64,000 nt of DNA from Escherichia phage CMSTMSU. Both the position numbers and the translations under genes were made by a program. A model generated the notes under the pieces. It did no database searches and had not been told where the DNA came from. It was given only the letters and a program-made list of their open reading frames with translations. Shown piece after piece: positions 54,090 to 64,000 of this stretch. Position 1 is the stretch's first letter. Every line of letters begins with the position of its first letter. The stretch lies in the sequence record MH494197.1; one strand, 5' to 3'.

Positions 54090-57000
54090 AATATTTTCCT
54101 TACGGTGAAGAATCCGTTATTAACGGCTGCTGTACTTTTCTCATGAATACCAATATCCATATCCAGAATACCAAAAATGTTTTCTAATTTTTAGTTAGAA
54201 CTATTTCTTCCATTTTCTCTGTATCAAATGGTAGTTCTAGGAACCATTCAGGTAGATATTCCACACAGTCAATTGGATAACCTACTGCTTTGATACCCAT
54301 CGGGTTATCTTTTAAGTTACATACAATTACTTTTGTACCGTCAGTTACTTCAGGTACAGTTTTGTCATCATATACTTCACGTAGACGGTTCCATTGAATA
54401 CCTGCTAATACATGACCAACTTTACATTTACCAGAAACTTCATATTCTGCTTCTAAGTTGGTATAGTTCTTAACAGTTTTCGGTGAACCTTTTTCGTGTA
54501 CTGGCATGTCTTTAAATACCTCTTTAAAGTCACGTACACGCTGTTTAAGTTGAGCTTCAGACTCACCCACCAGCAATGCAATTAGAGTCTCTTCTAGGAA
54601 GTTCTGGATGTATTTTGGCGTGTCTGAACGTTTAATTTCAAGACCCATCGCTTTAATTTCACCGGCTTACCATCAACATCTTTACGGAAACCATCTTCCC
54701 AGTACTTGAGAATTGCATAACGCTTTTCTTCAGGAATAGACCACGGAACCGACCATCTCTAAGTCTGCACCAACAATCTTACCTTTCTCAATACCAGTAT
54801 TGAACATTTCGTTCATGAATGAAGGGAATGATTCGCCAACTTCATCACCGATTTTGATATACATGTCAACGATTTCTTCTTTAGAAAGATTATATGGAAT
54901 ACCTTGTTCTTTCAGGTAATGAGTTACACTGAAGTAAACGGAGTCAGTATCACCGTAAATCACAGAGCCACCTTGATGATTATAAACACCAGTAGTGATT
55001 TCATTGATACGGCTTGCCATATGTTTAGTCATAGAACGACCAGTTAAGGTAACGGACTGACCTAAACGCTTATCAAAGAAACGTGAACCTTTGTTCAATA
55101 GTGCACCATATAGACTGTTTAGAAGAATCTTACGAATTTGCTGGTTCTGTTTCCAGAATGCACTTTGCTGTTTGAAGTAATTCTTATCTTCCGGTGCACA
55201 GAAAATACGACCATCTTTCAGTACTAAACCATTTTCCACAATGAGTTTTGCAACTTCTTCCCATTGACCTTTACCAATAGCAATACGTAATAGATAAACA
55301 GGATCATTGTCATGTAAGTTTGTACGGAACATTGTACCACTTGTGTAGTTAGATAGCAAAGGTTCAACCTTCTCAGAACCATTGAATTCCCACCCATCAC
55401 TGTACATGTGTTTGTAGTCGATTACCATTTTTGTTGTGCTTTACGCTCAGAATACCATTGAGTAAGAATATCTGGAATTACACCATACTTAGACTTATCA
55501 AAAAGTGTTCCGTTAGCACTTAGTACAATAGTACTGTCTTCAGCAAAGATAATATCATACAATTCTTTACCAGTTGCATTGAACGAACTACCATCTTCTA
55601 AATCAACAATCAAAGTTTTGTCAGATTTTTCATGAACCATTGTAAATTCTACAGCAGCAAATAAACCATGCCATGCTGCGGTCCAATCAGGTTCAAACGC
55701 TTTAGATTTGGATTTAGCTTTTTGTTCTTGTACTTTAGCAGCAAGATATGCATCAGTGTAGTCTTGACGAAGTTGTCCAAGAATACATTCAGTACTCATG
55801 CCAAGTGTACGTAGTACAGTTGGATACAATGAGTTAAAGTCTGTACATCCCAAATCGCTAACAAGGCCAAGAACTGGATCTTGAACCCATGCACCAGCAG
55901 CTTTTGCACTGATTTTCTCATCTTCTTCATCACCTTCTTCACCATAGTACTCCATCTCTGGATCTAACTCAAAATCATCCTTCGGTGCTTTGTTAAAACA
56001 ACTTCACCGCGTGAGTGAGCGAGGTTGATAATAGCAGTGTCGATTAGTGCAACAGAACCCATTGTGGTACTAATTAGTACACATTCTTTATGAGCAAGAC
56101 GGTTATGCAGGTTGATAAAGTCACATTTAGCATCAATTTTCTTTAGAAGAATACTATCCTGCTTAGAATAACGCAAGAATGTAATGTAATCTTCTCGGTA
56201 TAATTTATCCAATGAACCTTCATAGGATACTTTGTTTTCTTTAGTTACTTTTTCAGCAATATAATCTAGTTTGTACGACTGTTCAACTTGACCAGCATGT
56301 TTCTTATAAAGAGCAAGATAGTCTAAGTGTACGCGACCAATAAGATCATACGTTACTACAGTTTTACCAAAGTTATCAGCTTCACGAGCATTTGGTTTTT
56401 ATTCCACAAGCACCAACGAGCAGTAGTTGCTTCATTGAAGATTTTCTTGGTACGGTTTACCATATATGGAATATCAAAGAATTCACTGTTCCAACCTGAA
56501 ATTACATCAGAGTCATCGATTAGACTAAAGAACTCCATAAACATTTCTTTCTCATCCGTATAAAGGATGACAGTACTGTTAGGTCGTTAGTTTCTTCGTT
56601 TAACTGACGAACAATATCTTGTGCTTCGTACATTTCCATATCAGTTGGTGGTAAAGTCAGTACATAATCCTTACCAGTCCATGATTGATATAGAGAAATT
56701 GCAGTTACACGGTTGAATGGATCTGATGGTGGAGCATAACCAAACTTCTTATGGAAGTCGGTTTCGATATCGAAAAATGCTACGTTCAAATCCGGCGAAC
56801 CTTTACCCATGTATTCTCTAGCCAACGTTTTGAAGGTAATGTTGCAATCACTTTCAAAAATACGTAGACCTTCATTTTTATGTTGCTCAACGCTTTTATT
56901 CATCTGTGATTGAGTTTCAAACTCCAAATGCTTTGCGTTGGTTCCATAAATTGTTTTGTGTTCACCAGTAGGAGATTCAACATAATATTCATATACTGGG

Positions 57001-57094
57001 TCCAACTGACGTAGAATACGTTTACCGTTTTACGTTCTGCTACGTGCAAAATATCACCAGTACGTTTACGTTCCATATAAGCATCGATATACAT
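54086..57094 (-). CDS. gp43: DNA polymerase (family B, T4 gp43-like), at least five frameshifts
   Basis: exo motif FFDIETD, motif A DFNSLYPTV, motif B KILLNSLYGAL, motif C IYGDTDSVYF, KRSDTPKY, C-terminal NIFGILDMDI clamp-binding-like tail. Confidence 0.9.
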
Positions 57095-57178
57095 CGTTTG
57101 TATTCCTTTACGTTTATTAAGTTAAAAATAAAGCCCCATTCATTGGAGGCTATAAAGTTTAGTTTTAGTACTTATTAG

Positions 57179-57477
57179 TAATCGTCATCTGCTTGTGGCA
57201 AATTGTTAGTAACACTTAGGATAGTTTCGATGTTATCGAGTTTGTTTTGTTTGTCAAAGTAATCGCCTTTGTAGATACGTTGAGCGGCTTGTTTGATATC
57301 GGATGCATCAATACCTAGTTCATCAGAGATGGAACTAATGAAATCTGCATAGGATGCTTTGGTGTCGTCAATAAAAGTAAGTTGTACTACTGCGTTGTTT
57401 AGTGCATCACCTAGACGTTTACGTTGTTCATCATTTAGGTCACGAATTTCAACTTTAACTTCTTTTTAGCTTTTGCC
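57179..57477 (-). CDS. hypothetical small protein, frameshift near start
   Basis: MAKAKKEVKVEIRDLNDEQRKRLGD.. recovered by a 1-nt shift in an A-run. Confidence 0.35.
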
Positions 57478-57659
57478 ATTTGTTTGCTTCTCCATGTGTT
57501 TTGAAAAAATGTCATCTCACAACCGCTGTAAGATGACTACATTGTATCACTACTTACGATTTTGTTCCAAAAACTTTTAAACAGGTTTAACAGGGAACGA
57601 AAACTTCTTCTTACTAAATTCAGATGTTGTTAGAGATGATAGCTCAAGAACATATGCTT

Positions 57660-58022
57660 TCAACTTAGAAACAGTTCTATTTCATAATCAGTTGCTACCT
57701 CAAGATCTATCGCCATCTTAATGTTATTCAACTCATTAATTGCTACGGTTCTTAATTCTTGGTGCTCAGATGATAGACGTTTGATCTTTTCATCAGTAGA
57801 TTCAACATAATCAGAAATTTTACTTCCATCATAGATTTTACCAACTACTTCATCTTCATCTCCATCATGCTCCAACTCAGAAACACTGTATCCATACGGT
57901 ACTAACAATGTTACATCATATGATGCTTGTGCAATATATCCATCGTCAGAGTACTGAACTTTTAAAGTATCTTGTCTGAATTCGCTTTGACAATCATACC
58001 AGTCAATACCCTCATCTGACAA
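57660..58022 (-). CDS. hypothetical acidic protein (120 aa)
   Basis: intact ORF immediately downstream of the fibre gene. Confidence 0.4.
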   Translation of the reverse strand: MSDEGIDWYDCQSEFRQDTLKVQYSDDGYIAQASYDVTLLVPYGYSVSELEHDGDEDEVVGKIYDGSKISDYVESTDEKIKRLSSEHQELRTVAINELNNIKMAIDLEVATDYEIELFLS

Positions 58023-58092
58023 TAGATAAAGAACATTATCGCCATGTTTTTTCTACTGGGATATATTTTTGAAATTTTTATACGTTTTCATA

Positions 58093-59717
58093 TTAAGACT
58101 CCACTACTACGTTAGTCCATACACCATTTACTAGTTTTTGTGTATATCTCCAACTCAAACCTTCAACGTGTGTACCTGAACTACCATTTACTGAAATAAA
58201 CAACCCATCCAGTGTAGCACCTTCTGGTACATAGTTCCAAGAAGAATCAGGAACATTTCGCGTAGTTGTTCTTTTACTTAAACGAACATCTTGTACAGCA
58301 CCTAGTGTTAAAGTTACGTTACCGTTTGCATCAGCGTTGTTACCGTTAATAGATCTGACGATGTTTTTACTAGCAACAGTTGCTGTGTTTCCAGAAATAG
58401 ACAATGATGCACCAGTTACTGATGGAGCATAAAGTACACCAGAAGAGTTAATTGTAACTTCAGAACCACCATTACTTCTCAAACGTAATGTATTTGTTGA
58501 TGAACTGTGATAAATTGCTGCACGTTCAGTAGTTCCTGCCGCGTTACGGAAGTAAAGTACCAAAGATGTGTCGTCTGAACGAATTGTTGCACTGTTAGCA
58601 ATACTCAATGAACCAGACATTGTATCACCAGTTTTCAGTACATAACGGGTGTTTGCAACTTTTCACTCAACGCAACGTTGGACTCAGCAATGTTATATAA
58701 GTATGCCACATTGAAGTGTGGTACGTCAATATTACTAATTCCGTGGCTGTGTGCTTGACCACTACCAACAGTGTTCGTAGAGCCACTGAAACTATGCACG
58801 TGATCAGGTGCTTCGTTAATGTTATTAATTACAGTTGGGATTCCGTTGTCGTTACTGGATGTTAACGCATTAAGACCACTTCTGTCCATACCTTTAGTGC
58901 CTGACTATGACCATGACGACCAGCAGCACCAGTAGTTCCACTGAAACTAAATGAGTGCGGTGGAAGTTGAGCAATTGATATAGCAGTGCCACTAATTGAT
59001 GCACTACTTGCAATCACACTATCAGTTTTAGTTACGCCTGATGTGGTAATGCCTTTCAAGTATGCTTCTTGGTTAAGATTTGGAACTTGTTTTGTGATTG
59101 TACCATTTTCACCAGCCCATGTCCACCACATTCCATCAGCAAAACACCAACCATCAGAAGTTTTCCACGGAGAACCTTGTGAACCATTACGACCACTTTG
59201 ACCATTAGTTACACCAGACATCTGTTCACGAATACTAGCAACAGTTTGTCCAGAAGTCAATGAGTACTGGTAATTGCACGGGCTTCATTGAAGTATAAAG
59301 ACCTGTTGGGCCAGTACCGCTACTTGATGGAATAGGGAATACGATATTTAAATTCGTACCACTAATGCTCGCACTTGGAACAGCACTACTACTATATGTT
59401 ACTGTTTCAACTTTTAAATTCAGTTTACGGTTCACTTCATCGAGTGAAATACGGATTGGTTCAAGAATTGTATCAGTATCATATACTGCAATCCAACTTG
59501 TACCGTTGTGGTATTTTAACACCAACTCATTTCTATCAAATACCATCGCACCTTGCTCACCTGCTGGCAATGCCTGTACTGGTAAAATGACAGAAGATGA
59601 ATTAAAACGAATAGGTCTTGGATTAGTTGGTGTACCACCAAGCACTATTAGTTCTAAAGATCCATTAGCACCAGTACTAGTCATAGTATCCAGTGGGTTA
59701 TTAAAACTTATGCTCAT
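58093..59717 (-). CDS. tail fibre protein (T4 gp12-like, collar-type His-rich motifs), frameshifted
   Basis: LPPHSFSFSGTTGAAGRHGHSQ and HVHSFSGSTNTVGSGQAHSHG repeats, RYVLKTGDTMSGSL fibre motif; four fragments. Confidence 0.55.
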
Positions 59718-59758
59718 GTATAAATCCCTTTAATGATTAATATATACTATATTTATTA

Positions 59759-60082
59759 CTATAGCAAGTCGTTTTCCATATCGTCAAGAACAGAATCAAC
59801 GATGTTCGCTGCTATCTTCTTAGGCATCTTGAACCACTCGGTGTTAGGTTGCCTTACTGCGTTCATTTGTTTTAGTCTTTTGTGAATTTCTTTCTCTGCT
59901 AAACGTGCATCTTCAAAGTGTACTTCATGGTATACCACAAAATCTCTAAAAGGTGTAGCAGTTTGATATGTCCTTAAACGCTCTGTCATTTCAGATTTAC
60001 TGGTAAATCCTATCTTAACATAATCAGGCCATGCATCATTTACTATAACATAACATATCTGTGACATAGAAAATATCTCCAT
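59759..60082 (-). CDS. T5orf172-domain protein (GIY-YIG-like)
   Basis: CYVIVNDAWPDYVKIGFTS...RLRTYQTATPF...EWFKMP is the typical T5orf172 pattern. Confidence 0.55.
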   Translation of the reverse strand: MEIFSMSQICYVIVNDAWPDYVKIGFTSKSEMTERLRTYQTATPFRDFVVYHEVHFEDARLAEKEIHKRLKQMNAVRQPNTEWFKMPKKIAANIVDSVLDDMENDLL

Positions 60083-60134
60083 CAGTAATATGAAGATATT
60101 TATTAATCAAGTAATTCGGAAATTTACCCCAGCA

Positions 60135-60341
60135 TCAATTAGGCGTTGGAATGGGTTTGTGGCTCGAATTCAGAAGGAGTTTTGAAATGTTCAGTACTGG
60201 AGCATCAGCATGTAACTTTGACATACGTTCTTTGTACTTATCTAAGTATTCTTCATATAACATATCTTCAGTGTTACTATTAAGTATGTCTTCGATAAAT
60301 GAATCAATACTATAGTCCAGTCTATCATCATTATAATACAA
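60135..60341 (-). CDS. hypothetical small protein
   Basis: ORF only. Confidence 0.3.
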   Translation of the reverse strand: MYYNDDRLDYSIDSFIEDILNSNTEDMLYEEYLDKYKERMSKLHADAPVLNISKLLLNSSHKPIPTPN

Positions 60342-60499
60342 AGTTTCACTAGCTTCATCATAACCAACTAAAGTTCCGTATGGAACATTAATCTCAATTT
60401 TGAGTACTGACTCTTTAAGTACTCTTCTTTCTTAAAATGTATACAGTTAACATTGGTATCCTCCATAGTTTTATGTATTTAGAATTTTAGTCAAAGAAA

Positions 60500-60516
60500 A
60501 GGACTCGAAGAGTCCC
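60500..60516 (-). terminator. rho-independent terminator after the capsid gene
   Basis: GGACTC-GAA-GAGTCC hairpin followed on the minus strand by TTTTCTTTG. Confidence 0.5.
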
Positions 60517-60559
60517 TATTGTTTTAATTTCTTGATTAAATCTTTTAAATCGATTACAA

Positions 60560-61732
60560 TTACATGAAAGTAACGTTTTTGATAGCGATTTTGCTGTAGT
60601 AGTCAGCAGCGTTACCAAGAGATGAAGTACTATCAGTCAATTGTACATAACCATAACGAGTGAGGAAGGTTGTGACCAATTCACCAGTGTTAGGGTCCAT
60701 TACAGTACCGGAAGCCATTAGTGGGATGTATGGGCAATAGAACACACCAGCATCAGTTTCAGCGTTACCTTTGTAACCAATTAGGATATCTTCAACATCA
60801 CTTGCATAGGTATCAACGAAGATACGCATGGTGCTGTTTAGAGTACCAACAAATTTAACGTTAGTTGGAGCTTCGAAAGTACCTTCAGTAGTACGTGCAA
60901 AACTAGAAGTAGTTGCAGACTGTAGAATGGTTAGAGCGGTTGGAGAAACAACAGCCCAGTTCGCAGCACCACGTTTGGTACGACGAGCAACTTCGTTCGC
61001 TTGACGGTTGATTAGGGTAGCTAGAGCAGCGTGCTCGTCACCAACGAAGGTCGCAACACCAGTAACTTTAGATTGGTCATAAGTTACAGCAGCAGCACCG
61101 TAGTGCACGTAGACGGCTTAGTAGCTCTTGGTCGATTTCAACGGTAACTTCTTGAGCGATTGCAGCCATTAGTTCAGCTTCAACGTCGATACCATGTTGG
61201 GATTGTGCATCTTGTGCAGATTCAACAGTCCAACGTGCAGATAGACGACGAGATTTCGCTTCAACAGTTTCACGTAGAATACGGATGTTAACGCGACGAC
61301 CCATAGTACCTTCTAGTTGGCTAGTAGGAGCAGCTTGTGGGTTGCTGTTGTCTGCGTTTAGGTCACCAGTATAAGACTTAGCGATTTTGTATGGAGAAAG
61401 CATTTCTTCACCAGCGATAACACCGGAGCGTTGTCAGCATATTGAACACGTAGGGTGTGGATCTGACCAACTGGGCCAGTCATTGGCTGAACACCGATGA
61501 TTTCGTTAGCGATTACGGTTGGCATAACACGACGCATAATTGGTAGAATCACTTTGTTTAGAGTAGCGATGTTACCAGCAGTGGTTGCACCAGAAGTAGC
61601 AGATTCGTTTAGCATTAGTTTACGATGGTTATCAAGTACGGTTTCCATTACGGACTTACGAGTACCTTGTAGACCTTCAACTAGTTTCTCTTTAACTGCT
61701 ACCCATTTGGATTCATTTAGTAGTTGTGACAT
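60560..61732 (-). CDS. gp23: major capsid protein (T4 gp23-like), frameshifted
   Basis: VIANEIIGVQPMTGPVGQIHTLRVQY matches the T4 gp23 IAFDICGVQPMNSPTGQVFALRAVY region; three fragments; late-gene codon usage. Confidence 0.85.
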
Positions 61733-61776
61733 TATTATCTCCTTAAAGATGTTATATTCGTTTTTCAGTATGATAT

Positions 61777-61784
61777 TATTTATA
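61777..61784 (-). promoter_or_regulatory. T4-type late promoter TATAAATA upstream of the capsid gene
   Basis: exact TATAAATA on the minus strand 45 nt upstream of the gp23-like start. Confidence 0.5.
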
Positions 61785-61803
61785 GAACTGAAAAATTTGA
61801 TTA

Positions 61804-62931
61804 TTAAAATGCTTTAAAATGTTTATTTTTATTGATACCAGAAAGAACATCGAGTTCTTTTAGGAATGCCATATCGTCAGCGGTCATTTCTTCGCTTTCA
61901 ACAATAGCCTGACGGTTGCCAGTGATTACTTTACCTTCTGCAAGAGTTCTCTTAGCGGAAGACTGAACTGCTTGACGAGTGGTAGCAGATTCATTTACTT
62001 TAGTACCGTTAAGTACTGACTTATGGTACTTGCTGAAATCGTCTTTAAGCTTTTCTGTAGGAGAAGTAGCTAGAAGGGATTCCATAATTTGTTTCTGTTG
62101 TGTAGTTAGTGGCTTAACTAGTTCAGACATAATCGCATTACGAGCTTGTGAATCTTCCATAATACGTAGTTTGGTTTTAGCAGCTTTAACTTCACTTACA
62201 GTTTCATTTAGTTCTTTCTTAACTTGAGCAATTTCGTCTTCTTTAGACTTGATTGATTCAGTTAGGGAACGTAGTAGTGAATTCTCATTAAATTGTTTGA
62301 CATTAAACTCTTGAGCAAATGCTTCAAAGATTTTACGACCAAACATATTTTGTTTTGCTTCAACAAGATCTTCTTTCAAAGCGTATAGGTTTTTCTGAGT
62401 AGTTTCTGCAATATATTTAGCAGCACTTTCAGATGTACGTTTGATGAAGTTGTTACGTGCTTCAGCAATTTGACGGAGCCTTCAGCTAGTTTAACGCGAG
62501 TTTCAACTAGTTGACGTTTCTCGATGTGGAATTCTTTTAGCTCTTCTGCTAGGATACCGTTAGAGAAATTAACGAATTTATCCATGCATTCTTGAAGATG
62601 CTTACGTTCTTTACGCATTTGTTTAACTTCTTCAGCCAAAACAGAGTTAGAAAACGCAGAGAAATTACTTAGGGTTTTGCGGAGAGTTACACGATCTTCT
62701 ACAAGACGTTTTTCTCTTCATATACTGCACCCATTTCTTCAGCGATAACTTGAGTAACCATAGTATTTAGACCTTCGGTTAGCTCAGACAAATCTTGTTT
62801 GTAGCGGCCTTTCATTTCTTCACGCATTTCTGCGGCAAGTGTGTTTTTTCTTCATTCCATGCTTCCTGAATTAGCTGTTTTGCCTCATCAGAAAGAGATG
62901 ATTCTTTTAGAAGCTTTTCTAATTTAGACAT
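61804..62931 (-). CDS. gp22: prohead scaffold protein (T4 gp22-like), frameshifted
   Basis: coiled-coil-like Glu/Lys-rich protein between protease and capsid genes; AAGGAGAG RBS before ATG at 62929-62931. Confidence 0.55.
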
Positions 62932-62978
62932 TCGTTCTCTCCTTTAAGTACTGAAATATCTGTACTTCAACATACAAA

Positions 62979-62986
62979 TATTTATA
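62979..62986 (-). promoter_or_regulatory. T4-type late promoter TATAAATA upstream of the scaffold gene
   Basis: exact TATAAATA on the minus strand 48 nt upstream of the scaffold start. Confidence 0.5.
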
Positions 62987-63105
62987 TTTTTAAAATGTTA
63001 ACCTTTTAATTTCTTGAAAAAATCGTAAATTTCAGAATCTACATTATTTACTGTTTTAGATTCTGTGATTTTTTAGGACTATTACAAGGTGATCCGTACT
63101 ACTCA

Positions 63106-63615
63106 TCAGAGATTCAAAACCGCAGTAGGGTATGCCTCTGGAGCACTAGGTTGAGCAACAATATCAATTGTGATAATTTCAAAATCAGAAACTATTCCAT
63201 TGTAATCCACGTTACCGGAACCACGAGAACTTACACCAAGTTTCACACCAGCTTCTAGCATTTTACGAATATTAGTACCATGAGCAGTATCAAGTAGTTT
63301 GATTTCTGCCATGCCGTTAGCACCTTCCATCCAGACCTTAGTAATCATTGCTGCTACACGGTCAAGGTTAATTGTTAGTGTTTCAGGGTGGTCACATTCA
63401 ACTAGAATACTTTCACCTTTAGCCAAACGTTGAGCCATATTATTAACAGCTTTAGTAATTTCGGCTAAAGGGTAAATTCTCTCATTTAAATTTCTTTGAT
63501 CGGCTTGAATAGCAATACCACGAAGATAGCAATCACGCCCACCAAGTCCATTATCACGATGTTCCAAAACAACTTTAGAATCATTGAATGAAGACCATTC
63601 ACGAATCATACTCAT
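63106..63615 (-). CDS. gp21: prohead core protease (T4 gp21-like)
   Basis: intact 169-aa ORF; GVKLGVSSRGSG matches the T4 gp21 GWIPGVSSRGLGS active-site region. Confidence 0.8.
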   Translation of the reverse strand: MSMIREWSSFNDSKVVLEHRDNGLGGRDCYLRGIAIQADQRNLNERIYPLAEITKAVNNMAQRLAKGESILVECDHPETLTINLDRVAAMITKVWMEGANGMAEIKLLDTAHGTNIRKMLEAGVKLGVSSRGSGNVDYNGIVSDFEIITIDIVAQPSAPEAYPTAVLNL

Positions 63616-63636
63616 AATGATCTCCTTTCCTTTTCT

Positions 63637-64000
63637 TTATTTAGTGTTAGATTTTTGGTTGTGATTTTGGTAGTGGAGAACGAGATTTAGAAGCGGTATT
63701 TTTGGCTTCGCAACATCTTTCATTTCGCCACGAGCATTTTTACCTAGGTCTTCATCAGTGTGGGACATAGCATCTTCGTTTTCAAAATCATAATCTACTT
63801 GTTTTTCGGAAGCTTTAGCGAATTTCACTGGAGCAACACCTTGAACTGGAGATTTAGCTTCTGGAGCAACTGGGGACTTGGTATTAACGCCAGCTTTTTC
63901 TTTCTTATCAACCGCAGCAACTTGCTTAAGTTTGAAAGACTCACCAACTTTCTCATCACCGAATTGTACATCAGCAAATTCGTCTTCAGATTCTTCACCA
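63637..64000 (-). CDS. prohead core-type acidic protein, partial (runs off window end)
   Basis: open frame from the window edge to 63637; acidic, upstream of the protease as T4 gp67/gp68 are. Confidence 0.35.
   Translation of the reverse strand, partial: GEESEDEFADVQFGDEKVGESFKLKQVAAVDKKEKAGVNTKSPVAPEAKSPVQGVAPVKFAKASEKQVDYDFENEDAMSHTDEDLGKNARGEMKDVAKPKIPLLNLVLHYQNHNQKSNTK

Follow-up and report, generated by a model that had tools for sequence, protein, structure and literature searches.

A stretch of 64,000 nucleotides (nt) of Escherichia phage CMSTMSU (record MH494197.1; this whole stretch is called the window here) carries a small nuclease-domain gene in its late structural block. The gene appears in a mechanical list of open reading frames (ORFs) as a minus-strand ORF of 107 amino acids (aa) at positions 59759 to 60082. 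The ORF matched the Pfam family T5orf172 (PF10544) over profile positions 2 to 99 of 101, with an E value of 3e-13 and a score of 50.6 bits versus a cutoff of 20, and the sister family MUG113 (PF13455) with 48.8 bits versus a cutoff of 22.3. With Pfam membership defined as a score above the curated gathering cutoff across the whole domain, the ORF protein belongs to T5orf172, a branch of the GIY-YIG superfamily. The family phrog_15085 covered the ORF from end to end (E=2.8e-56), and tblastn found the identical protein in eight deposited phages, including fEgEco12 (g352), and a 99.1% identical protein in a ninth. The labels deposited for the identical proteins are "GIY-YIG nuclease family protein," "T5orf172 domain protein," and "homing endonuclease"; the protein is thus already in GenBank under the same domain label, and the gene is ordinary as a discovery. 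No second T5orf172 domain was found in the window, where the ORF is the sole copy. The sixth codon of the ORF, the ATG at 60067, is probably the true start, because relatives annotate a gene of 309 nt, a GGAG ribosome-binding site precedes this ATG (Table 1), and the MEIFS extension is not conserved. An earlier interpretation of the same DNA from its letters alone (the sequence-only reading) had described a small free-standing T5orf172 ORF within the late structural block, which the Pfam and PHROG matches and the identical deposited proteins confirm, and had placed it between the capsid and tail-fiber genes. That placement is correct; additionally, a gp605-like gene separates the ORF from the capsid gene, and the tail-fiber gene lies directly downstream. 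The same interpretation took the ORF for a possible mobile insertion or DNA-binding regulator. The results described below make it rather likely that the ORF is a stand-alone T5orf172 nuclease domain encoded by a gene that is fixed and passed on vertically in the 121Q/PBECO4/GAP32/CBB ("Rak2-like") jumbo phage lineage and that it is not mobile.

The distribution and gene order of the ORF were compared across related phages, with presence or absence taken from 62 phage records and synteny read in 11 annotated records. An ortholog of at least 60% identity was present in all 62, which comprise all 61 non-Klebsiella DNA relatives and the Klebsiella phage fENko-Kae01, and the next matches, found in T5-like phages, were at most 44% identical. 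The shared order was capsid gene, variable slot, gp605-like gene, T5orf172 gene, tail-fiber gene, assembly-protein gene, small ORF, and DNA polymerase gene. This order was kept in Asteriusvirus (fEgEco12, vB_Ec-M-J, 121Q, A4, and phAPEC6), in Munch, in GAP32 and CBB (Mimasvirus), in Serratia phage BF (Eneladusvirus), in Erwinia phage Hallingskeid, and, with one extra gene, in Xanthomonas phage XaC1. Metagenomic relatives with a T5orf172 protein only 49 to 56% identical still carried the gene between capsid and tail fiber, and records L014 to L016 carried it without a gp605-like gene. The constant position in every relative in which it was examined (at least six genera) and in these metagenomic relatives argues against a mobile insertion of the seg or mob kind. 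Relatives without the ORF, for which the sequence-only reading had suggested looking, were confined to the Klebsiella Alcyoneusvirus lineage, Pseudomonas phage MIJ3, and Agrobacterium phage Atu_ph07; close relatives showed no polymorphism, and none in presence or absence was seen among the 62 records of the ortholog-bearing lineages. In KP13-7 (Alcyoneusvirus), an unrelated 244-aa ORF fills the T5orf172 slot (L005:8927-9661). This ORF was considered as a divergent T5orf172 and rejected, as hhalign, Pfam, and PHROG all gave no match, and it could be a replacement or a nonorthologous substitute. The extra gene of XaC1 is a 154-aa ORF, unassigned to any family, between T5orf172 and the tail fiber (L010:4391-4855); XaC1 also has two small genes upstream of T5orf172 (L010:3258-3958), only one of which, XaC1_335, belongs to phrog_15724.

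The T5orf172 protein was also strongly conserved in sequence. Its aa identity to the fEgEco12 protein across genera was 69 to 77%, compared to 86 to 92% for the capsid gene, 43 to 61% for the tail fiber, 31 to 37% for the gp605-like gene, and 21 to 32% for the tail-fiber assembly protein, so that it exceeded all neighboring genes except the capsid gene. The gp605-like values for XaC1 were disregarded, having come from XaC1_336, whereas the phrog_15724 member is XaC1_335. The proportion of nonsynonymous differences (pN) in the T5orf172 gene was 0.07 to 0.20 and that of synonymous differences (pS) was 0.64 to 0.84, at which synonymous sites are saturated, and the ratio omega was 0.05 versus 121Q and 0.085 versus BF. 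A length of 96 to 109 aa and all motif residues were kept across capsid divergence down to 67%. The low omega with saturated pS indicates strong purifying selection and, therefore, a selected and vertically inherited gene; the relaxed selection or decay typical of a homing cycle was not seen in the omega, length, or motifs of the ORF.

The 102-aa protein (residues numbered from the M at 60067) was covered from end to end by the nuclease domain alone, and no other Pfam or NCBIfam match, including helix-turn-helix and zinc-finger families, was found for it. A word-indexed search returned 23 close homologs, every one of them 100 to 109 aa long, and a profile search of 1.84 billion representatives returned 2340 family members. 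Among the best 150 of these 2340 representatives, 113 had an N-terminal extension (with at least two CxxC motifs in 59 of the 113) and 30 were stand-alone. The window protein has all of Y6, N10, K18, G20, R30, P39, E58, E77, and W78, which are 97 to 100% conserved (n = 137 representatives); the sole replaced family position is G3, where a clade-specific change has put Q. Residues were mapped through Odn of ICP1 because the PDB holds no T5orf172 structure. When Odn was aligned to the family profile, albeit weakly (18 bits), its E180 fell on E58, and Arg, Tyr, and Gly residues of Odn fell on R30, Y6, and G20, respectively. Odn reportedly still has both the catalytic Arg and the catalytic Glu, and its E180A variant is inactive in vivo and in vitro, with E180 equated by its authors with E75 of I-TevI (PMC8263062). 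Conservation thus points to an intact catalytic set in the window protein. The check for GIY-YIG catalytic residues that the sequence-only reading had called for found R30 and E58 retained, both among the 137 representatives and in the Odn alignment. That reading had set conservation at one position, together with loss of these residues, against mobility; the gene is indeed conserved at its position, but the residues are intact.

A GIY-YIG-like fold, with a three-stranded sheet flanked by helices, was predicted by an AlphaFold2 model built from the ortholog alignment (predicted local distance difference test score, 88.7; predicted template modeling score, 0.79). The best structural match of this model was to SLX1-type GIY-YIG nucleases, and Foldseek searches with it gave weak matches to stand-alone UPF0213 GIY-YIG proteins, Slx1, and UvrC, and an HHpred run by the CBB authors also matched SLX1. 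No canonical GIY-YIG family was among the Pfam matches to the ORF at E<=1. A profile alignment to the catalytic domain of I-TevI was uninformative (probability, 0.3%) and was not used. The protein ends in a conserved acidic tail: the net charge of the last 14 residues was -3 to -6 in 22 of 22 orthologs, their consensus is DDxExxLL, acidic with a hydrophobic end, and D92, D96, and D97 vary little or not at all. Acidic tails are also found at the end of the closest stand-alone homologs in the outgroup (P0024 to P0027).

One gene upstream of the ORF, just after the capsid terminator, lies a homing endonuclease hotspot. Relatives with a homing endonuclease gene (HEG) at this slot (121Q, vB_Ec-M-J, A4, and phAPEC6) have about 1.1 to 1.2 kb there, and the slot is empty in the window, fEgEco12, CBB, BF, and Hallingskeid. 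The occupants belonging to phrog_681 combine treble-clef zinc fingers (DUF4379, DUF723, or CapR) with a subthreshold T5orf172/MUG113 domain, the same architecture that has been reported for T5orf172 homing endonucleases, with zinc fingers of this type in 87% of them (PMC10448857). In GAP32, the slot holds a short ORF, GAP32_251, that is apparently a decayed remnant of the phrog_681 mobile gene, and in L017 and MIJ3 it holds an unrelated HNH-type endonuclease gene. The effect of an occupant was visible when fEgEco12, which lacks a gp604-type gene, was compared to vB_Ec-M-J, which has one. Apart from the 3' end of the capsid gene, the two were 99 to 100% identical over the block. In the capsid gene they differed by 29 synonymous and 0 nonsynonymous codon changes, and 27 of the 29 fell in codons 305 to 373 of 391, beside the insertion (L001:3252-3458; window positions of about 60617 to 60823). 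This cluster is likely a co-conversion or target-site tract. With the gp604-type gene serving as the positive control, the same comparison revealed no co-conversion or target-site divergence tract around the T5orf172 ORF. BLASTP detected no similarity between the small ORF and 121Q gp604; their relation was seen only by profiles, through the match to phrog_681 (E=3.8e-6, in the nuclease part) and the subthreshold Pfam match to gp604. The intuition of a selfish gene therefore suits the locus, where a gp604-type mobile gene follows the capsid gene in many relatives, but not the small ORF, which is not mobile and which stands beside a slot that is empty in the window.

The T5orf172 and tail-fiber genes are each preceded by TAATAAATAT, and these are the only two exact copies in the window. 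An ATAAATA-type core was found upstream of T5orf172 in 8 of 9 relatives (XaC1 has CTAAATA) and upstream of the tail fiber in 9 of 9. The ATAAATA cores resemble the T4 late promoter and lie at fixed distances from the capsid, T5orf172, and tail-fiber genes. ATAAATA has been proposed as the late promoter of the CBB/GAP32 group, and the promoter list of the CBB authors includes Porf_260, ATAAATATTTCTAT, at the site equivalent to that of the tail fiber (PMC5259590). According to the same authors, a promoter of another type, TGAAACG...TATAAT (Porf_258), precedes the gp605-like gene (PMC5259590), and we found TGAAACG-N17-TATAAT upstream of that gene in GAP32, CBB, and BF. A sigma-70 promoter scan gave counts no higher than in shuffled sequences and was not used. 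The T5orf172 proteins CBB_259 and phAPEC6 gp222c are absent from virion lists obtained by electrospray ionization tandem mass spectrometry, which include the flanking capsid protein (in CBB, also the tail fiber) and proteins down to 4.7 kDa. As it went undetected in two virion proteomes, the T5orf172 protein is taken to be nonstructural, though its gene lies in the structural block.

The region was closest to Asteriusvirus-like jumbo coliphages, with 97 to 98% identity to fEgEco12, vB_Ec-M-J, Ecwhy_1, and others, and was about 87% identical to 121Q/PBECO4. An alignment of 8 kb of the window (56000 to 64000) with fEgEco12, whose Illumina-derived sequence served as the reference for indels, contained 112 substitutions and 39 indel columns. 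All 39 were deletions on the window side, at A/T homopolymers or CCTGG/CCAGG (Dcm) sites. Deletions of this kind are the mark of long-read assembly without polishing; the window (probably the whole of it) thus looks like such an assembly and its frameshifts like artifacts. No indel falls inside the T5orf172 ORF. The deletions fragment the capsid gene (three ORFs, from deletions at 61425 and 61100), the tail-fiber gene (four ORFs, from deletions at 59280, 59271, 58896, and 58664), the gp605-like gene (four single-base deletions, at 60438, 60402, 60184, and 60159), and both the assembly-protein gene and the DNA polymerase gene. Variability within the block is highest in the part formed by the C-terminal half of the tail-fiber gene and the assembly-protein gene (window positions of about 57577 to 58900), which is 50 to 70% identical in nt between phages with capsid genes about 93% identical; the megablast match of the PBECO4 group ends at about 58413. 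This part looks like a host-range cassette exchange. The idea that the nuclease marks a genetic-exchange boundary was rejected, since the steep drop in identity lies in this part and not at the ORF. In the phAPEC6 record (MK817115), the tail-fiber region (L019:3865-5480) holds only a 150-nt annotated ORF (gp221c), and the tail-fiber gene is therefore unannotated or disrupted there.

Table 1. Coordinates of features at the T5orf172 locus of the window and of the genes that fill the slot after the capsid gene in relatives
Feature	Position	Strand	Evidence or remark
TATAAATA box, ATAAATA core, late-promoter-like	61777-61784	-	About 45 nt upstream of capsid start
Major capsid gene (gp23-like)	60560..61732	-	Pfam Gp23 on three adjacent ORFs; start and stop verified
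Intrinsic-terminator-like hairpin after capsid gene	60499..60517	-	Terminator scan; terminator annotated at same place in Munch
Empty homing endonuclease insertion site, capsid terminator to gp605-like start	60454..60498	-	Junction sequences compared
gp605-like small gene (phrog_15724, E=8e-23)	60107..60453	-	Usual upstream neighbor of T5orf172; boundaries verified
TAATAAATAT with ATAAATA core, late-promoter-like	60096..60105	-	About 30 nt upstream of T5orf172 start
GGAG ribosome-binding site	60077..60080	-	9 nt upstream of ATG 60067; read from sequence
Stand-alone T5orf172/GIY-YIG-superfamily nuclease-domain gene	59759..60067	-	102 aa plus stop; Pfam, PHROG, aa identity, verified translation
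Codon for Y6, tyrosine of "GIY" strand	60050..60052	-	99% conserved; beta-strand 1 of model; codon verified
Codon for R30, predicted catalytic arginine	59978..59980	-	99% conserved; aligns to Arg in Odn EKR stretch; codon verified
Codon for E58, predicted catalytic glutamate	59894..59896	-	99% conserved in 137; aligns to Odn E180; codon verified
Codons for E77-W78, T5orf172-specific "EWF" motif	59834..59839	-	100% in 137 and 116 representatives; verified
Conserved acidic C-terminal tail (residues 91-102, DSVLDDMENDLL)	59762..59797	-	pI 4.05, on core of pI 9.1
Second TAATAAATAT, late-promoter-like site of tail-fiber gene	59749..59758	-	About 30 nt upstream of its start
Tail-fiber gene (phrog_13229)	58093..59717	-	Four consecutive ORFs spanning profile positions 1-541
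Slot occupant, phrog_681 gene of 304-408 aa, in 121Q (gp604), vB_Ec-M-J, A4, phAPEC6, Munch, and KP13-7	L002:2505-3602 (vB_Ec-M-J), L003:2505-3602, L012:2492-3598, L011:2631-3545, L005:7291-8517 (KP13-7), L019:2005-3102 (phAPEC6)		
Slot occupant in GAP32, 77-aa ORF GAP32_251	L004:3256-3489		Matches only C-terminal 50 residues of phrog_681

The window gene may descend from the lineage of homing endonucleases that join zinc fingers to a T5orf172 domain, having lost the targeting domain or never had one, and would be retained, as a domesticated gene, because its product serves the phage as a small DNA endonuclease or nickase that depends on Mg. As the protein has no sequence-reading domain, its action would be structure selective or nonspecific, like that of SLX1, its best structural match, or it would be recruited by a partner. 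The gene probably has its own late-type (ATAAATA) promoter, and in the GAP32/CBB group it might also be read from the TGAAACG...TATAAT promoter upstream of the preceding gene. The conserved acidic tail that follows the basic core is an obvious candidate for an element of docking or autoinhibition. A more specific version, which we offer tentatively and hold to be possible though somewhat doubtful, is that of a domesticated catalytic half: the nuclease, fixed in the distant past after the loss of its targeting module, would be structure selective or recruited by a partner, and its DDxExxLL tail would dock it to the replication, recombination, or packaging machinery or inhibit the enzyme itself.

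Several observations weigh against a fixed, functional nuclease gene of this kind. The Klebsiella Alcyoneusvirus lineage lives without the gene, which is therefore not universally essential. In a neighbor-joining tree of the capsid protein, L014, which has the gene, branches outside KP13-7, which does not; this suggests a single old gain with later loss, a scenario that comes from a rough single-protein tree without support values. The catalytic competence of the window protein is predicted from conservation only, and searches with the ortholog profile, a broad profile, and the single sequence gave no meaningful PDB match, nor was any T5orf172 structure found. The second ("YIG") tyrosine, assigned by its spacing from the motif Gly, is the lysine K18 in the window protein; because this position is 99% Lys across the T5orf172 family, the lysine is a family trait and not a defect of the window protein. 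The late-promoter list of the CBB authors has no site for CBB_259, and an endonuclease VII homolog (CBB_248) is already present in these phages (PMC5259590), which takes away the plainest reason for a further branch-cutting nuclease and makes a packaging role like that of endonuclease VII less likely.

Other explanations were weighed against the same evidence. The mobility proposed by the sequence-only reading would make the ORF an active free-standing HEG of the seg/mob kind, inserted between capsid and tail fiber and spreading by cutting genomes that lack it. T5orf172 proteins form a recognized class of phage homing endonucleases, found in clusters near capsid genes and other essential genes (PMC10448857), the catalytic residues of the ORF are intact, and one deposited record labels the identical protein a homing endonuclease. 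However, the protein has no DNA-binding or targeting domain, versus the CapR, DUF723, or DUF4379 zinc fingers in 87% of T5orf172 HEGs (PMC10448857), no polymorphism in its presence exists among the 62 records, and purifying selection has been strong over deep divergence (omega of about 0.05 to 0.09). Moreover, the 99 to 100% identity of fEgEco12 and vB_Ec-M-J around the ORF, with no flanking co-conversion tract, stands against the 27 clustered synonymous changes beside the gp604-type gene. With none of the marks of a free-standing HEG seen in the ORF (targeting domain, polymorphism, co-conversion tract, and relaxed selection), active homing is largely refuted and very improbable, and the deposited label "homing endonuclease" is, in our view, wrong. 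If the ORF were instead a decaying and now functionless remnant of an old homing endonuclease, its reduction to a nuclease domain, as though truncated, would be expected, and a true 77-aa remnant of another endonuclease does lie nearby in GAP32; but the same omega values with saturated synonymous sites, the steady length of 96 to 109 aa, and the retention of all motif residues refute decay, to which we give next to no credence.

T4 endonuclease II (DenA) is a small stand-alone GIY-YIG enzyme, and a nuclease that degrades host or competitor DNA in the same manner would have the architecture and intact residues seen here. The absence of the protein from virions fits such a role, and candidate defense proteins in PADLOC share the domain (PDC-S57, E=1.3e-15; PD-Lambda-1, E=7e-4). 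Against this, no sign was found that these phages protect their own DNA by modifying it, the DNA of fEgEco12 was used for ordinary restriction mapping, and a late-type promoter would give the wrong timing for host shutoff, so that we think this role improbable. About equally improbable is the other suggestion of the sequence-only reading, a DNA-binding regulator, for example of late or tail-fiber transcription, in which the nuclease would be dead or irrelevant. The InterPro name "T5 Orf172 DNA-binding," the basic core (pI 9.1), and a position directly upstream of the late-promoter-like motif of the tail fiber are in its favor, as are two precedents: I-TevI doubles as a repressor, and CapR, a relative of T5orf172 endonucleases, was domesticated as a repressor of a capsid gene (PMC10448857). 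Both of these repress through a DNA-binding domain, however, and CapR derives from that domain of T5orf172 endonucleases (PMC10448857), whereas the window protein consists of the nuclease domain and matched neither helix-turn-helix nor zinc-finger families; all family-conserved residues are kept, including the Glu essential in Odn, which would be unexpected were catalysis dispensable. Also unlikely, if slightly less so, is that the ORF encodes the catalytic half of a split endonuclease, with DNA recognition supplied by the gp605-like protein or another phage protein. The gp605-like gene adjoins T5orf172 in most relatives, the conserved acidic tail could serve as a docking peptide, ICP1 offers examples of split or frameshifted endonuclease genes (PMC10448857), and SLX1, the best structural match, is reported to need SLX4 for activity (PMC4407285). 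Yet the gp605-like protein is at most a candidate partner. It was rejected as an obligate DNA-binding partner, since it has neither Cys or zinc-finger motifs nor a family match, and each gene occurs without the other: the gp605-like gene persists in KP13-7 without T5orf172, and T5orf172 persists in L014 to L016 without the gp605-like gene.

If the domesticated catalytic half proposed above is real, it would be a clear case in nature of a selfish endonuclease whose nuclease half was domesticated, the counterpart of CapR, in which this happened to the DNA-binding half. A domesticated nuclease, if the gene encodes one, would also offer a tractable protein (12 kDa, with one predicted essential Glu) with which to probe the role of a GIY-YIG domain free of targeting in a jumbo phage. 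The analysis also corrects an easy misannotation, made in several deposited genomes, of a fixed and selected gene as a "homing endonuclease." Within 1.5 kb, the locus contrasts a selfish T5orf172-type gene undergoing gain, decay, and loss with a related nuclease domain that evolution has long preserved.

Compared to known systems, the ORF resembles the T4 Seg (GIY-YIG) and Mob (HNH) genes in being a small nuclease gene flanked by essential genes in a large lytic phage whose core genes are T4-like. Seg and Mob proteins have DNA-binding regions, and their presence varies from one T-even phage to another. The window ORF, unlike them, is not variably present, and it has no canonical GIY-YIG Pfam match at E<=1. 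The small bacterial UPF0213 (YhbQ-like) proteins, at about 95 aa, also consist of a single stand-alone domain, but neither they nor SLX1/HIGLE have detectable sequence similarity to the window protein. T5orf172 differs from SLX1 and UPF0213 in having Lys for the second motif Tyr and an extra invariant "EWF" motif, and SLX1 has a RING domain in addition and depends on SLX4. Odn of ICP1 (Gp88; PMC8263062) is, similarly, a T5orf172 nuclease that serves its phage, acting against PLE satellites, and its Glu, Arg, and Tyr align with those of the window protein; it differs in its 226 aa and in the N-terminal RepA_N DNA-binding domain that gives it specificity, for which the window protein has no counterpart. 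Finally, the T5orf172 homing endonucleases of ICP1, T5-like phages, and others (Barth, Dunham & Seed 2023, PMC10448857), together with 121Q gp604/phrog_681, share with the window ORF the PF10544/PF13455 domain family, the invariant residues, and the neighborhood of the capsid gene that is typical of them. The window ORF lacks their CapR, DUF723, DUF4379, or other DNA-binding domain; it is fixed, has no co-conversion tract, and is under strong purifying selection, and the gp604-type genes are its opposite on every one of these points.

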